Shown here piece by piece: positions 212-51,812 of a stretch of DNA of 64,000 nt. Made by a program: the position numbers and the translations under genes. The number at the start of each line of letters is the position of its first letter. The first letter of the stretch is position 1. The stretch is from Escherichia coli. GTDB taxonomy: Bacteria; Pseudomonadota; Gammaproteobacteria; Enterobacterales; Enterobacteriaceae. The notes below the pieces were generated by a model. It worked only from the letters and a program-made list of their open reading frames with translations. It was not told the DNA's origin and did no database searches. The stretch lies in NCBI RefSeq assembly GCF_044647545.1, contig NZ_CP172818.1. The stretch is one strand, 5' to 3'.

Positions 212-841
212 ATGCATCGTATAGACACGAAAACCGCGCAGAAGGATAAGTTCGGCGCGGGTAAGAACGGTTTTACCCGTGGTAACCCCCAGACCGGCAC
301 ACCTGCCACCGATCTGGATGATGACTACTTTGACATGTTGCAGGAAGAACTTTGTAGCGTGGTGGAGGCCTCCGGTGCCAGCCTGGAGAAAGGGCGGCAT
401 GACCAGATGCTTACCGCACTTCGTGCGCTGCTGTTAAGCCGCAAGAATCCGTTTGGCGATATCAAATCGGATGGCACTGTGCAAACGGCTCTCGAAAACC
501 TTAGTTTAGGAGAAGGAGCAAAACTCAATGCAGCAACGGCTACATTAGGACGCACCGGTTTCATAGCTATACCGGTTATGATTGGTGGTATTGAGCAATC
601 AGTAATCATTCAGTGGGGGTGGAATGCCGCAAAAGCATCTGCCTCTGGGGGGGATGGAAATACAGTTGTATTCCCGGTTGCGTTTAATAATGCCTGTGTT
701 GCCGTTGTTGCAAATTATGACAATGTCAGCGCACCTATCAATGCAGTGGCAACGGGGGGATATACAACCACTTCGTTTTTATTACGGTGCGCAGCTCAAA
801 CGGGTAGTTATTACTATAACTGGATTGCTATTGGGTATTAA
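212..841 (+). CDS. stfP: Side tail fiber protein StfP (constant N-part fused to P-orientation variable part)
   Basis: 209-aa ORF; junction motif NLSLGEGAKL at the pix site; same length as K-12 StfP. Confidence 0.8.
   Translation: MHRIDTKTAQKDKFGAGKNGFTRGNPQTGTPATDLDDDYFDMLQEELCSVVEASGASLEKGRHDQMLTALRALLLSRKNPFGDIKSDGTVQTALENLSLGEGAKLNAATATLGRTGFIAIPVMIGGIEQSVIIQWGWNAAKASASGGDGNTVVFPVAFNNACVAVVANYDNVSAPINAVATGGYTTTSFLLRCAAQTGSYYYNWIAIGY
489..514 (+). other. pixL: Hin/Gin/Cin-type 26-bp inversion crossover site inside stfP
   Basis: ctctcgAAAACCttAGTTTaggagaa; AAACC-NN-GGTTT-like core; inverted relative to site at 2310-2335. Confidence 0.6.
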
Positions 842-842
842 G

Positions 843-1319
843 ATGAAAATATACTGTTGCTTAAATACCGTTGGTTTTTTTATGGATGGCTGTGGCGTCA
901 TTCCGCCAGATTCTAAAGAAATAACGGCAGAACACTGGCAGTCATTATTAAAATCTCAAGCTGAAGGAGGCGTGATCGATTTTTCTGTTTTTCCTCCTTC
1001 TATTAAAGAGGTTATCCGTACTCATGATGATGAAGTCGCAGATGCGAACTTTCAAAAGCAGATGCTTATCTCTGATGCAACTGATTTTATCAATAGCAGA
1101 CAGTGGCAGGGTAAGGCTGCATTGGGAAGACTTAAAGAAGATGAGCTGAAACAATCTGATTTGTGGGCTGGATTATCTGGACGCACTGGCGCTGGTCGAT
1201 ACCGCCAGTGCGCCGGATCTGAATGGCCTACGCCTCCGGCAGTTCAGGCCAGTAAATATCCGGTACAGTGCTGGTATCCGTTGCCATCACCGCGTCAATG
1301 TAATCCAGCACGGCGTTAA
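843..1319 (+). CDS. tfaP: Tail fiber assembly protein TfaP (start uncertain)
   Basis: ATG at 843 immediately after stfP stop; 3' end overlaps convergent tfaE; C-terminal region atypical so exact ends uncertain. Confidence 0.5.
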   Translation: MKIYCCLNTVGFFMDGCGVIPPDSKEITAEHWQSLLKSQAEGGVIDFSVFPPSIKEVIRTHDDEVADANFQKQMLISDATDFINSRQWQGKAALGRLKEDELKQSDLWAGLSGRTGAGRYRQCAGSEWPTPPAVQASKYPVQCWYPLPSPRQCNPARR

Positions 1320-1830
1320 GTCGGGTGTTTTCTGTCTGCGTCAGCTTCCTCCCGGCCTGCAATTTCAGTTGAATCAGACTAATTGAAGCCATTGCAGTAT
1401 CAATCAGTGACTGGCGCTGTGCTTCTGCCGCTTCTATTGCGGCACCGTATTGTGCCTCGGTATCGGTTACCCATTTCTCACCATCCCATTTATCGTATGG
1501 TGTTAACGGAGCGATAGTGGTCATATTTTCAGGGTAATCCCCTGGCGCTGTGATTTCTTTTGGTTCTCCCGTTTCGGTGCTATAAACAATTTCACCGCGA
1601 TGGTCTGGCACATATTTCCACGAGTTCAAATCCGTTGAGCGGCAAATTGCATAACCCGTTTTATGTGTACCAGGTGCATCTAAACAAGAACATGCCGGGA
1701 TACCGACACCGACAGCAAGATATTCGGTTGATGTTGAGATATATTCCTGTGTCCCATTATCATAGTTATAAACGGTAATATCCCCTGCCTTTACCGCGAT
1801 CAGCGCATCATTTAATACAGCTCCACCCAT
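1228..1830 (-). CDS. tfaE: Tail fiber assembly protein TfaE
   Basis: 200-aa ORF with typical Tfa C-terminal region (...VPDIYWPELPEA). Confidence 0.8.
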   Translation of the reverse strand: MGGAVLNDALIAVKAGDITVYNYDNGTQEYISTSTEYLAVGVGIPACSCLDAPGTHKTGYAICRSTDLNSWKYVPDHRGEIVYSTETGEPKEITAPGDYPENMTTIAPLTPYDKWDGEKWVTDTEAQYGAAIEAAEAQRQSLIDTAMASISLIQLKLQAGRKLTQTENTRLNAVLDYIDAVMATDTSTVPDIYWPELPEA

Positions 1831-3047: not shown

Positions 3048-3881
3048 ATGCATGTTTTTGATAATAATGGAATTGAACTGAAAGCTGAGTGTTCGATAGG
3101 TGAAGAGGATGGTGTTTATGGTCTAATCCTTGAGTCGTGGGGGCCGGGTGACAGAAACAAAGATTACAATATCGCTCTTGATTATATCATTGAACGGTTG
3201 GTTGATTCTGGTGTATCCCAAGTCGTAGTATATCTGGCGTCATCATCAGTCAGAAAACATATGCATTCTTTGGATGAAAGAAAAATCCATCCTGGTGAAT
3301 ATTTTACTTTGATTGGTAATAGCCCCCGCGATATACGCTTGAAGATGTGTGGTTATCAGGCTTATTTTAGTCGTACGGGGAGAAAGGAAATTCCTTCCGG
3401 CAATAGAACGAAACGAATATTGATAAATGTTCCAGGTATTTATAGTGACAGTTTTTGGGCGTCTATAATACGTGGAGAACTATCAGAGCTTTCACAGCCT
3501 ACAGATGATGAATCGCTTCTGAATATGAGGGTTAGTAAATTAATTAAGAAAACGTTGAGTCAACCCGAGGGCTCCAGGAAACCAGTTGAGGTAGAAAGAC
3601 TACAAAAAGTTTATGTCCGAGACCCGATGGTAAAAGCTTGGATTTTACAGCAAAGTAAAGGTATATGTGAAAACTGTGGTAAAAATGCTCCGTTTTATTT
3701 AAATGATGGAAACCCATATTTGGAAGTACATCATGTAATTCCCCTGTCTTCAGGTGGTGCTGATACAACAGATAACTGTGTTGCCCTTTGTCCGAATTGC
3801 CATAGAGAATTGCACTATAGTAAAAATGCAAAAGAACTAATCGAGATGCTTTACGTTAATATAAACCGATTACAGAAATAA
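3048..3881 (+). CDS. mcrA: 5-methylcytosine-specific restriction endonuclease McrA (HNH)
   Basis: 277-aa ORF with C-terminal HNH motif (CENCG...HHVIPLSSGG...CPNCH). Confidence 0.9.
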   Translation: MHVFDNNGIELKAECSIGEEDGVYGLILESWGPGDRNKDYNIALDYIIERLVDSGVSQVVVYLASSSVRKHMHSLDERKIHPGEYFTLIGNSPRDIRLKMCGYQAYFSRTGRKEIPSGNRTKRILINVPGIYSDSFWASIIRGELSELSQPTDDESLLNMRVSKLIKKTLSQPEGSRKPVEVERLQKVYVRDPMVKAWILQQSKGICENCGKNAPFYLNDGNPYLEVHHVIPLSSGGADTTDNCVALCPNCHRELHYSKNAKELIEMLYVNINRLQK

Positions 3882-4125
3882 AATTATTTATTAAAGTCAC
3901 ATTTAAGACGTAATACCCTACAGGGTAAAAATTTTCTCTGATCTTAACTTCTGCAAATGTTAACTGCTATTTTTATGCTAAAAATGGTTATCAAAACTCA
4001 AAAACACATGTTTATAATCAATGAGTTATAGAAATGCTAAGGGCTAATGAGTTATATGCAAATTAGTAAAATTATGTTGCTATGTCAGATAGTTACGATT
4101 TAGTCATCTAACTAATGTACGCCAT

Positions 4126-4278
4126 ATGGGCTGGACTGAAGCCGCAGACTTGATTGTTAAAGGTATGGAAGGCGCAATCAACGCCAAGACTGTAACCTAT
4201 GACTTCGAACGTCTGATGGAAGGCGCTAAACTGCTGAAATGTTCAGAGTTTGGTGACGCGATCATCAAGAATATGTAA
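4126..4278 (+). pseudogene. icdC: icdC: displaced 3' fragment of isocitrate dehydrogenase at prophage attR
   Basis: Encodes [50 protein letters not shown], the Icd C-terminus, without an upstream body. Confidence 0.85.
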
Positions 4279-4301
4279 TTACTACATGTGTTAAATATTG
4301 T

Positions 4302-4334
4302 AACGGGCGTATAACACGCCCGTTGTTTTATTTA
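4302..4334 (+). terminator. Rho-independent terminator (icd 3' terminator)
   Basis: Hairpin aacgggcgt-ataac-acgcccgtt followed by gttttatttat. Confidence 0.6.
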
Positions 4335-4380
4335 TGTGGGTATTATTAATAGCACATTGAGCATATTTATATGAAGCCCA

Positions 4381-4704
4381 TTACTTGAGCCCATATGGGC
4401 ATATTTTTATAATGCAACTATTATGCAAACATTTATTTGTTATTTTGCTTTCTCCTGGAGGACACTCTTGACTGCTTTTGAGTAAACTCCATAAATCCTT
4501 GTTGAATGGTGCGATGTTATAAATAGTAATAGGATATTCTTTATCCTTAAGGATAATACCAGATTTAACCGGTGTAAATATCCTGCCAGGAGGAAGAAAT
4601 ATAGTGGATTGATACCAGATGATCATTTTCATATCACCCCATATGGCTGAAAAAGATATGCCGCATGTAGGTTGAATTACCGTGTCAATTACTATCCACT
4701 TCAT
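4381..4704 (-). CDS. iraM: Anti-adaptor protein IraM
   Basis: 107-aa [33 protein letters not shown]... recognised as IraM. Confidence 0.9.
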
Positions 4705-5811: not shown

Positions 5812-6031
5812 CAGGATAATAACCTCTTGTTAGTTGTGAGACTGCGTAGTGTGCACGATCGGTTTTACCACTTCAATCTGGTCTGTCCTTTGGCTGTGAT
5901 ATGTACAAAGTGTGAAAGGGGGATTACCTGAATTCTCCCGGTGAGCATTTTGTAATGGACCAGCTCCGGTACAAACGCTGTTGTGGGTTCAGATTATAAC
6001 ATTCTGTCTAAGGGGCGGGATAAAGGTGAAA

Positions 6032-6763
6032 TTAGGGGGCATGGAAGATGACTTTATAACCTTGCTCACCCCAGTGTTGTAAAAGTTCGTTTTGCCTTCT
6101 CGTTGGTGCCATGCCTGTCCAGACAATTAATGTTTGCGTCGGGAACAGTTCCGGGCGCGGCGATTCAATGGGATCAGCAAGAACAGAAATGTGCCATCCT
6201 GACAATGATAAACGCCATGCTTCCAGCCACAATCGTGCTCTCTCTTCAACATTCCACGCCATCAGAATGGCTTCTTTACCGGGCTTACGGCGCATTTCGA
6301 AAAGCGAGGCTGCTGCGTATTCAATTAATGCGCCGTCAAACATACTGCTCATAATGCGGGAGGTGTTGTGATCAAGCACGAGACGCTGGCGAACAGGAAG
6401 GTAAACATGATTAATCAATTGATCTACTGGGTACTCTCGGCCCAGTGAAATAATTCTCGCGCGTAGTTTGGCAGGATTAGCCATACGAAGAATTGACATC
6501 ATCTCTTCTTGCAGGCGGCTCCAGTCATCTTCCGTATCCTGGCTGGTGGTTTCCAGTAATGCTTTAACTTTGCCTACAGGGACGCCATTACTTATCCAAC
6601 GCTTGATCTCTTCGATGCGTTGTATGTCTTCTTCATCAAAGAGTCGGTGTCCGCCTTCACTGCGCTGTGGTTTTAACAAACCGTAGCGGCGTTGCCAGGC
6701 CCGGAGAGTGACAGGATTAATCCCGCAACGTTCAGCAACATCACCAATGCTGTAATAAGCCAC
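6032..6763 (-). CDS. bluR: MerR-family repressor BluR
   Basis: 243-aa ORF with N-terminal MerR HTH ([30 protein letters not shown]...). Confidence 0.9.
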
Positions 6764-6967
6764 AATTCCTCCTTGCGGTCACAAATCTCCGTCGCCTGTA
6801 CACGACCCAATAATACTTTGTACAATATACGCTAAAATTGTACAAAGTATAAATAAGATTTCAGCTAAATTGAATGAAACATTATTTTTAATGTGGATTA
6901 AATTTAAACATAACGTATTCATTTTCACGATGATTTTCAGAAATCATACGAAATAATGTGCTGGAAA

Positions 6968-31577: not shown

Positions 31578-32648
31578 ATGACCCGTCCGATACAGGCCAG
31601 CCTCGATCTGCAGGCATTAAAACAGAATCTGTCCATTGTCCGGCAGGCCGCGCCGCACGCGCGCGTTTGGTCGGTGGTAAAAGCGAATGCTTACGGGCAC
31701 GGTATTGAGCGTATCTGGAGCGCGCTAGGGGCCACCGATGGCTTTGCATTACTTAATCTGGAAGAGGCAATAACGTTACGTGAGCGCGGCTGGAAAGGAC
31801 CGATCCTGATGCTGGAGGGATTTTTCCATGCACAGGATCTGGAGATTTATGACCAGTACCGCCTGACCACCTGCGTCCACAGCAACTGGCAGCTCAAAGC
31901 ACTGCAAAATGCGCGGCTAAAAGCGCCGTTGGATATTTATCTTAAAGTGAACAGTGGGATGAATCGGTTGGGCTTCCAGCCCGATCGCGTGCTTACCGTC
32001 TGGCAGCAGTTGCGGGCGATGGCGAATGTTGGCGAAATGACCCTGATGTCGCATTTTGCCGAGGCGGAACATCCTGATGGAATTTCCAGCGCGATGGCGC
32101 GTATTGAGCAGGCGGCGGAAGGGCTGGAGTGTCGGCGTTCGTTGTCCAATTCGGCGGCGACTCTGTGGCACCCGGAAGCGCATTTTGACTGGGTTCGGCC
32201 TGGCATTATTTTGTATGGCGCTTCGCCGTCCGGTCAGTGGCGTGATATCGCCAATACCGGATTACGCCCGGTGATGACGCTAAGCAGTGAGATTATTGGT
32301 GTCCAGACGCTAAAAGCGGGCGAGCGTGTGGGCTACGGCGGTCGCTATACTGCGCGCGATGAGCAGCGAATCGGCATTGTCGCCGCAGGATACGCCGACG
32401 GTTATCCGCGCCATGCGCCTACCGGTACTCCTGTTTTAGTGGACGGCGTGCGCACCATGACGGTGGGGACCGTCTCGATGGATATGCTGGCGGTTGATTT
32501 AACGCCTTGCCCGCAGGCGGGGATTGGTACGCCGGTTGAGCTGTGGGGCAAGGAGATCAAAATTGATGATGTCGCCGCCGCTGCCGGAACGGTGGGCTAT
32601 GAGTTGATGTGCGCGCTGGCGTTACGTGTCCCGGTTGTGACGGTGTAA
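31578..32648 (+). CDS. dadX: Catabolic alanine racemase DadX
   Basis: 356-aa ORF with PLP-lysine motif VVKANAYGHG. Confidence 0.95.
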   Translation: MTRPIQASLDLQALKQNLSIVRQAAPHARVWSVVKANAYGHGIERIWSALGATDGFALLNLEEAITLRERGWKGPILMLEGFFHAQDLEIYDQYRLTTCVHSNWQLKALQNARLKAPLDIYLKVNSGMNRLGFQPDRVLTVWQQLRAMANVGEMTLMSHFAEAEHPDGISSAMARIEQAAEGLECRRSLSNSAATLWHPEAHFDWVRPGIILYGASPSGQWRDIANTGLRPVMTLSSEIIGVQTLKAGERVGYGGRYTARDEQRIGIVAAGYADGYPRHAPTGTPVLVDGVRTMTVGTVSMDMLAVDLTPCPQAGIGTPVELWGKEIKIDDVAAAAGTVGYELMCALALRVPVVTV

Positions 32649-33033
32649 CTTGTTGTAAGCCGGATCGGAGGCAGCGTCTTCTGGTTGCGAAAAAATCATC
32701 CATCCGGCTGGTCAGCAACTGTAGTTGGTGATGTGACAGAGCCATTTCCCATGATAGTGTCCATTACAATGATGGACACTATTTCCCCGGAACCTGAACT
32801 CACCGCACAGGCGTTCTACATAAAACGCTTACGTTTCATTGTTGACTCGAACTCGACTTCAGATAAATCACGCTTCACCCTTGATGGAGCCTGTACATAG
32901 ATTTGTGTAATTGCCTGATTTTGATATGTTCAATTCACCTTCAAATGAAGGTGAATTTATGGCCGACAAACAATTACAGGCTCTGGCTGCGGTCAGTAAA
33001 GCATCGCATCCGGCGATAGATGCTGCATTAAAT

Positions 33034-34818
<1,785 letters not shown>

Positions 34819-49163: not shown

Positions 49164-49409
49164 AGGGGGCTGATGTGTAGTGATACAAAAACTTACGTTA
49201 TATCACTGCTAATGAGATATCCGGCATCTGAACACTTATGTCTTTAATTATTCTCGTGGTTCACTATAGGCAATAAGCACAAAAGTGTAGGATGTTACAA
49301 GAATGAATTAGGACTCTATGAAATGAAAAATCCACGCAATTGCGTGGATTTAATGGTTTTTTTGATTCTCATGAAGTTCAATGAAACCTCATGAGACAAC
49401 AAATTTTAT

Positions 49410-51758: not shown

Positions 51759-51812
51759 CAAATACTGCAGTTTACTGACCAGTCAGTTTGCTCTGACTGG
51801 TCAATCTCGTAC

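Follow-up and report, generated by a model that had tools for sequence, protein, structure and literature searches.

The dadX–cvrA interval and its two palindromes

The 64,000-nucleotide (64-kb) stretch of DNA analysed here, referred to throughout as the window, comes from the Escherichia coli contig NZ_CP172818.1 and includes the convergent genes dadX (31578–32648, plus strand) and cvrA (33034–34770, minus strand). Both were read from the list of open reading frames (ORFs); cvrA is annotated in matching records and dadX in all matching E. coli records. The 385 bp between them hold two palindromes, both of which had been pointed out, with the correct spacer limits, in a first-pass annotation made from the sequence. 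Palindrome 1 (32754–32782) reads ATAGTGTCCAT-tacaatg-ATGGACACTAT, with perfect 11-bp arms (32754–32764 and 32772–32782) around a 7-nt loop. Palindrome 2 (32932–32957) reads AATTCACCTTCA-aa-TGAAGGTGAATT, with perfect 12-bp arms (32932–32943 and 32946–32957) around a 2-nt centre. The earlier description had the arms of palindrome 1 right but placed them 2 nt too low, and its 11 + 4 + 11 arrangement for palindrome 2, which started 1 nt too high, is the same object as the 12 + 2 + 12 arrangement given here. It is very probable, as argued below, that both palindromes are cis-elements inherited from the left ends of insertion sequences (ISs), and that one of these ends donated the start of the small-protein gene ymgM. 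The interval is a mosaic of mobile-element debris plus this one gene, and not an empty convergent spacer: the borders first given for it stand, but ymgM opens at 32959, directly after palindrome 2.

Chance cannot account for the two palindromes. When the 385-bp spacer was shuffled 5000 times with dinucleotide composition preserved, 4 of the shuffled sequences contained one perfect inverted repeat with arms of at least 11 bp and a loop of at most 10 nt, and none contained two; the window as a whole contains 8 such repeats versus about 0.35 in shuffles. RNA folding, a check proposed in the first-pass annotation, shows that both palindromes fold far better than shuffled sequence. Palindrome 1 reaches −20.3 kcal/mol on the plus strand and −18.8 kcal/mol on the minus strand (z = −6.0 and −4.0), palindrome 2 reaches −14.3 and −14.8 kcal/mol (z = −3.8 and −4.6), and no shuffle matched these energies. 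A scan against Rfam gave no family match, the best hit (E = 1.8) being far below the gathering scores.

Palindrome 1 and the IS66 family

On the minus strand, the window aligns with the left ends of intact IS66 copies of Pantoea stewartii, from the terminal GTAAGCG at 32832 through palindrome 1 to about 32735. The remnant so defined (32735–32832, minus strand, the inner limit being approximate) is arranged as the GTAAGCG tip (32832 to 32826), 50 nt of intervening sequence, palindrome 1 and some 20 nt of a degenerate tnpA start. The tip carries the terminal GTAAGCG of the IS66 family and aligns with the tips of the intact copies. Blastn against plasmids supports the same assignment, with matches in Pantoea, Serratia, Klebsiella and other plasmids that show 76–81% identity to the DNA immediately 5' of genes annotated as 'IS66-like element accessory protein TnpA'. 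The window contains no tnpA, tnpB or tnpC at this site, no second inverted repeat and no 8-bp target duplication, and the feature is therefore a remnant and not an element. Judging from these alignments, palindrome 1 is inherited from an IS66-family left end. The relic is present at the homologous position of K-12 (about 1240036–1240133), where the MG1655 RefSeq record has nothing annotated over it. The arms of palindrome 1 are intact in both the K-12-type and the window-type alleles, and the loop differs at 2 of its 7 positions. A two-ended miniature IS66 element of 177 bp, with GTAAGCC at 32656 facing the GTAAGCG at 32832, was considered and rejected: it shares at most 6 nt with real right ends and its flanks are not duplicated.

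The first-pass annotation had proposed a genome-wide search for the arms as a recurring motif. Searching one genome per species for both exact arms separated by 5–9 nt returned 99 loci, about 90 of them in Pantoea stewartii; most of these lie 47 nt from a contig end, as is typical of a repeat present in many copies. The remaining loci include other Pantoea, Erwinia, Mixta, Enterobacter and several Alphaproteobacteria. What recurs is thus a set of about 90 IS copies in P. stewartii together with IS66 elements of other species, and not a host regulon. In intact elements the palindrome lies 43–52 nt (with one outlier at 71) inside the GTAAGCG(TC) terminus and ends 2–6 nt before the first ORF, tnpA. 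The P. stewartii element encodes an HTH_Tnp_1 protein followed by TnpB_IS66, and complete copies in viral contigs are 2.5–2.7 kb long with 8-bp target duplications; size, proteins and duplications are all hallmarks of the IS66 family.

Variants of the element retain the dyad. One variant carries a one-sided change (ATAATGTCCAT/ATGGACACTAT), and two others carry two-sided changes with the symmetry kept (GATAGAGTCCA/TGGACTCTATC and TAATGTCCAT/ATGGACATTA). More distant IS66 members have quasi-palindromes with the same GTCCA/TGGAC core in the same place. In an alignment of 15 IS66 left ends, 8 of the 11 core pairs are invariant and one shows a compensatory change, an invariance that partly reflects the fact that most of these sequences were collected by their exact arms. 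The arms are identical between alphaproteobacterial and gammaproteobacterial copies despite flanks that cannot be aligned, a pattern that favours sequence-specific recognition.

Two side observations belong here. In the P. stewartii record L021 (about 6030–6159), one IS66 copy is inserted within the tnpA of another, so that the host sequence ...NGINDNLL continues directly into the GTAAGCGTC tip; this nesting shows how active the element is in that genome. In addition, the exact arms occur at four places outside any IS66 context: twice in Yersinia (L096 5182–5210 and L105 1032–1060), once in Gottfriedia (L098 758–784) and once in the rplT–pheS spacer of a member of the Desulfobacteraceae (L007 1564–1591). 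These terminator-like hairpins were put down to coincidence: in 298 Gb of sequence, perfect hairpins are frequent enough for a given 11-mer to turn up in a few of them.

Palindrome 2 and an IS1414-like left end

Palindrome 2 lies in a second relic, the 102-bp left end of an IS1414-like element of the IS256 family (32887–32988, plus strand), which comprises the inverted-repeat tip GAGCCTGTACATAG, the leader, a ribosome-binding site, the ATG and the first 10 transposase codons. Window positions 32886–32988 are 93% identical to the left end of an intact IS1414 on plasmid p67_83, the transposase ATG included. This intact copy has the same GAGCCTGTACATAG tip, an 8-bp target duplication (AGCTCTGG) and a transposase matching PF00872. 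Only codons 1–10 of the Mutator-type transposase gene are left at the relic, and the ORF runs on in the window as ymgM. In the MG1655 RefSeq record the same stretch is already annotated as 'insertion sequence: IS1414 (partial)' at 1240188–1240289 (K-12 coordinates equal window coordinates plus 1,207,301). Palindrome 2 is accordingly placed, by homology, as inherited from an IS1414-like IS256-family left end.

The relic is also 99% identical to an IS256-family pseudogene copy elsewhere in E. coli, adjoining an isoaspartyl-peptidase gene (L106), which occurs in about 200 genomes and carries an identical 26-nt perfect palindrome. Pairing is perfect in the window and in this copy, amounts to 8 of 12 pairs in intact IS1414 and has decayed in K-12; the predicted hairpin energies of the segment are −14.3 kcal/mol for the window, −4.4 kcal/mol for K-12 and −3.2 kcal/mol for IS1414. 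At the dadX–cvrA locus, the perfect form was found in none of 5,426 complete E. coli genomes, the best spacer identity being 96.6%, and the window allele had no match among JGI metagenome contigs. The idea that the dyad might be a conserved host element thus fails for palindrome 2, which at this locus is perfect only in the window allele.

Near the inner edge of the relic lies TACAGGCTC (32975–32983), a perfect 9-bp inverted copy of the tip sequence GAGCCTGTA (32887–32895), recognized as an inverted repeat and from alignments to IS copies and to the long spacers of records L003 and L107 described below. It lies in transposase codons 6–9 and marks the deletion junction between IS-derived DNA and old spacer. 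Together the two tips bound a 97-bp unit. A 97-bp miniature element with these ends was rejected, as it has no target duplication and its flanks lie 1.9 kb apart in the unrearranged allele.

ymgM, a gene with a start from an insertion sequence

The ORF that opens at 32959 is ymgM (32959–33162, plus strand), which encodes a small protein of 67 amino acids. It matches the Pfam family PF23693 (YmgM) over residues 1–67 of 67 with E = 1.4e-46 and 157 bits against a cut-off of 27. In MG1655, ymgM (b4740) is annotated at 1240260–1240463 with the same dadX/cvrA synteny, and YmgM-SPA has been detected by immunoblot in that strain (VanOrsdel et al. 2018, PMC6001520, Table 1). Beyond the ymgM stop, at a distance of 50 nt, K-12 has a strongly Rho-dependent 3' region at position 1240513 (plus strand; Adams et al. 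2021, PMC7815308 supplement), and ymgM–cvrA is listed among convergent overlapping transcript pairs (PMC12288877). A Cappable-seq supplement has no transcription-start entries at these coordinates.

In its make-up ymgM is a chimera. The leader, the Shine-Dalgarno sequence, the ATG and codons 1–10 are IS1414-like, the middle is old spacer and the last 129 nt are antisense to the 3' end of cvrA. Homologues of YmgM are confined to Escherichia and Shigella, and their N-termini differ between spacer forms; in the other forms, the same antisense frame is open with other starts (MQAQAA..., MRPASHP..., MYPVIDAA...). The window protein differs from that of K-12 at five residues (A2, L8, V12, H17 and A23), and the protein collection, which does include the K-12 protein, has no entry for this exact variant.

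Palindrome 2 spans positions −27 to −2 relative to the ymgM ATG, and its right arm contains the Shine-Dalgarno sequence GAAGGTG (32947–32953), 5 nt ahead of the ATG. In folds of a 91-nt context, the hairpin is part of both the minimum-energy and the centroid structures of the window allele and is absent from the K-12 centroid. On these models, the hairpin is predicted to lock the ymgM ribosome-binding site and to lower YmgM translation relative to K-12.

Forms of the spacer and origin of the window allele

The spacer is polymorphic, with at least four forms across the 5,426 complete genomes. These include the 385-bp K-12-type form, whose architecture the window shares; a form of about 2.2 kb with an intact gene for a 478-aa leucine-rich-repeat (LRR) protein on the minus strand (L003, L107); an O157-type form that is an internal deletion of the 2.2-kb form; and a 120-bp form in B2-type strains, which has none of the spacer features described here. 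A full IS at the dadX–cvrA site was found in no genome searched.

The intact LRR gene, carried by many E. coli, lies at 3217–4653 (minus strand) in L003, where it is annotated as a hypothetical protein, and at 338–1774 (minus strand) in L107, and it has LRR matches in Pfam and NCBIfam. In its LRR region the protein is similar to the type III effectors SlrP and SspH2, but it has no C-terminal ligase domain. The window keeps a 3' fragment of this gene (32816–32886, minus strand; stop at 32816–32818; the coordinate offset between window and L003 is 29599). The LRR reading frame crosses into the IS66 tip and terminates there after 16 nt, and the gene therefore appears, from the position of this frame end, to have been truncated by an IS66-family insertion. 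Another IS256-family left-end relic, older and inverted, is present in the long form (L003 5154–5254 and L107 2245–2343, reverse strand); it is 77–80% identical to window 32887–32988, and its tip falls where the K-12-type deletion has its right junction.

The dadA–dadX and cvrA–ldcA–emtA regions are 100% identical to those of several E. coli genomes, including FDAARGOS_497, MS6198 and a strain named ST648. The spacer flanks are near-identical to those of long-form strains (1 mismatch in 290 and 2 in 128), yet the architecture is K-12-type. The IS segment differs from K-12 at 7 of 102 positions, and the right junction reads CAGGCTCTGGCT joined to GCGG in the window versus TGCAGGCTC joined to AGGCTGCGT in K-12. 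An independent deletion, gene conversion from a distant IS copy and a near-ancestral state are all candidates for the origin of this allele.

Proposed history and weighing of rival explanations

The scheme that best accounts for these observations starts from two mobile elements. In each parent element, the palindrome is flanked by the terminal inverted repeat on one side and by the start codon of the first IS gene on the other, a position from which such leader palindromes would restrain that gene's expression. An IS66-family element appears to have inserted on the minus strand and truncated the LRR gene, leaving a left-end relic of about 100 bp that keeps palindrome 1. The 102-bp IS1414-like left end, on the plus strand, supplies ymgM with its ribosome-binding site, ATG and 10 codons. 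In IS66 elements, the dyad, with invariant arms and a free loop, adjoins the start of tnpA, which encodes a helix-turn-helix protein. It would most likely bind a dimeric IS protein, hide the tnpA start within an RNA hairpin when transcripts read through, or do both. The IS1414-type hairpin may mask the Shine-Dalgarno sequence. With no transposase remaining, palindrome 1 itself would be a fossil, any RNA role being incidental. A bolder proposal goes further and is offered tentatively, as something possible: the IS66 dyad, ATAGTGTCCAT-N7-9-ATGGACACTAT at about 50 nt from the left tip, may be a previously undescribed TnpA operator or transpososome assembly site, and ymgM may be a young gene built from the IS1414 initiation region and cvrA antisense sequence, switched off here by the intact hairpin and on in K-12 by its decay. 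A literature search, with the primary IS66 papers outside its reach, found no description of the subterminal IS66 dyad or of the IS1414 remnants.

Several points weigh against parts of this scheme. Counts of base pairs do not tell an RNA hairpin apart from a protein-binding dyad, and the most abundant IS66 variant tolerates an A–C mismatch. Consensus promoter scans found none in the spacer, and specifically no sigma-70 consensus promoter in either IS left end. Intact IS1414 forms 8 of the 12 pairs, so the IS1414 lineage has not conserved the palindrome 2 hairpin, which is therefore not essential for that IS. If ymgM transcription started within palindrome 2, the full hairpin would be kept out of the native mRNA. 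Finally, the intact arms and varying loop of palindrome 1 among E. coli alleles could hint at a retained function, or may be small-number noise.

That the palindromes are simply 3'-end hairpins, palindrome 1 ending or stabilising the dadAX transcript and palindrome 2 ending cvrA or ymgM-antisense transcripts, acting as non-canonical terminators or exonuclease blocks, is very unlikely. Both do fold stably on both strands, and palindrome 1 lies 106 nt after the dadX stop and, on the minus strand, 34 nt after the stop of the intact LRR gene. However, a terminator scan found no site at either palindrome and no U-tract on either strand, the tails after the stems being UUUCCCC and CAUGGG for palindrome 1 and UAUGGCC and GAACAUA for palindrome 2; in this the first-pass annotation, which had seen no clear T-tract and had held that these are not classic terminators, was right. 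The only spacer 3' ends listed by Term-seq of K-12 in two conditions are at 1240019/20 on the plus strand, or window 32718/9 (PMC7815308 supplement). This point lies 35 nt upstream of palindrome 1 and 10 nt past the stem of an imperfect hairpin just 3' of dadX (32658–32709, plus strand; AGCCGGAT...ATCCGGCT; the fold of 32645–32730 has −28.2 kcal/mol), and it is this hairpin, not palindrome 1, that is associated with the mapped dadX-side 3' end. No 3' end is listed at either palindrome in these tables, which are K-12 data, from a strain in which the palindrome 2 hairpin is not present; Term-seq had been named beforehand as the check that could reduce the palindromes to dadX and cvrA 3' hairpins, and the K-12 data do not do so. 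On the other side, cvrA has a hairpin of its own followed by UUUAC (33000–33024, minus strand, 10 nt after the cvrA stop; −11.8 kcal/mol for the fold of 32985–33040), which is likely, on this fold, to be its 3' structure and a weak terminator-like site. Palindrome 2 also forms no hairpin in K-12 or in more than 3000 other genomes with the K-12-type spacer, and B2-type E. coli do without both palindromes. Still less probable, to the point of being hardly credible, is a role as operators for host transcription factors regulating dadAX, ymgM or cvrA. The perfect dyad symmetry with a spacer, and for palindrome 1 the conserved arms and varying loop, would suit such a role. Against it, neither arm 11/12-mer recurs in the window beyond chance single-mismatch matches, the arms of palindrome 1 occur in IS66 elements of unrelated bacteria and not at host promoters, palindrome 2 is absent or decayed at this locus in all 5,426 complete E. 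coli genomes searched, and both dyads lie downstream of dadX where there is no known promoter. The suggestion in the first-pass annotation of protein-binding dyads or RNA structures belonging to the convergent spacer has thus given way to inheritance, in each case, from an IS left-end leader.

The remaining alternative concerns only the perfection of palindrome 2, which could be a recent mutation from the imperfect IS1414 or K-12 version, through quasi-palindrome template switching or gene conversion, with no selected function. We regard this as rather unlikely, though it has more to be said for it than the two alternatives above. All four differences from intact IS1414 within the 26 nt turn mismatches into pairs, the allele is unique among the complete genomes searched, and the sequence on either side matches, at 100% identity, that of ST648-like strains, in which a near-identical perfect copy lies about 1 Mb away. 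However, the same perfect palindrome in the independent IS256-family copy of about 200 genomes makes it a pre-existing IS variant, and template switching was rejected as the origin on this ground; moreover, both arms were corrected, which one switch alone cannot do. Gene conversion from the distant IS256-family copy is possible as the source, but a single-base difference (TTA versus TTG) and a different right junction set the window apart from this donor.

Other inverted repeats in the window

Six further perfect inverted repeats were noted elsewhere in the window. The longest by far, at 9795–9848, has 24-bp arms and a 6-nt loop (ATATCAGGTGTCAAGAATGGAGAG ttctcg ...). Four others, at 6813–6850, 14971–14995, 16927–16952 and 51776–51803, have arms of 11–14 bp. 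At 49328–49351, a 12-bp loopless perfect palindrome (AAATCCACGCAATTGCGTGGATTT) is followed by T's; it looks like an ordinary intrinsic terminator, because this palindrome is contained in the sequence given for K-12 Term-seq 3' end 1256636 (minus strand).

Comparison with known systems

The palindromes of the dadX–cvrA interval are ordinary IS relics, of which the IS1414 one was already annotated in K-12 and the IS66 one was not. Two apparent mystery dyads can thus be removed from the annotation of this interval and an unannotated IS66 left-end relic added. Neither of the two leads that follow, the IS66 dyad and the ymgM hairpin, overturns established knowledge. The IS66 family is widespread and mechanistically poorly understood, and a conserved subterminal dyad adjoining tnpA offers a candidate regulatory or transposase-binding site. 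In ymgM, an expressed small protein has clearly received its N-terminus, along with the start codon and ribosome-binding site of its gene, from an IS, and natural alleles of the gene differ by about 10 kcal/mol in predicted occlusion of the ribosome-binding site.

Like Rho-independent terminators and the 3' stabilisers of the repetitive extragenic palindromic (REP) type, the two palindromes are stable intergenic stem-loops downstream of converging genes, but they are not followed by a U-tract, coincide with no mapped 3' end and do not resemble REP sequences. The likeness to the IS66 family (IS66, IS679, ISEc8 and relatives, with tnpA–tnpB–tnpC) lies in the GTAAGCG end, the 76–81% identity from left tip to tnpA and the same distance between tip and palindrome; the difference is that the window keeps only about 100 bp of the left end, with no tnpA/B/C, right end or target duplication. 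With the partial IS1414 of MG1655, the window shares the position and junctions as well as the tip, leader, ribosome-binding site, ATG and 10 transposase codons. However, the window copy is a sub-variant with a perfect 12-bp leader palindrome, which has 8 of 12 pairs in intact IS1414 and has decayed in K-12. As a consequence of the same difference in folding, the ymgM ribosome-binding site is open in K-12, whereas in the window it is buried in the predicted hairpin.

A functional parallel is found in IS10, IS50 and other ISs, in which leader inverted repeats sequester the transposase ribosome-binding site in read-through transcripts. According to the IS10/IS50 paradigm, transcription from the element's own promoter begins between the two arms, and folding is therefore confined to transcripts that enter from outside. 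In the relics, as in these leaders, an inverted repeat separates the left terminal repeat from the transposase start, and one arm covers the ribosome-binding site (palindrome 2) or abuts the start (palindrome 1), a likeness in the placement of the arms. For palindrome 1, the strict conservation of its sequence across IS66 elements points at least as much to putative protein binding as to RNA insulation of the IS10/IS50 kind.

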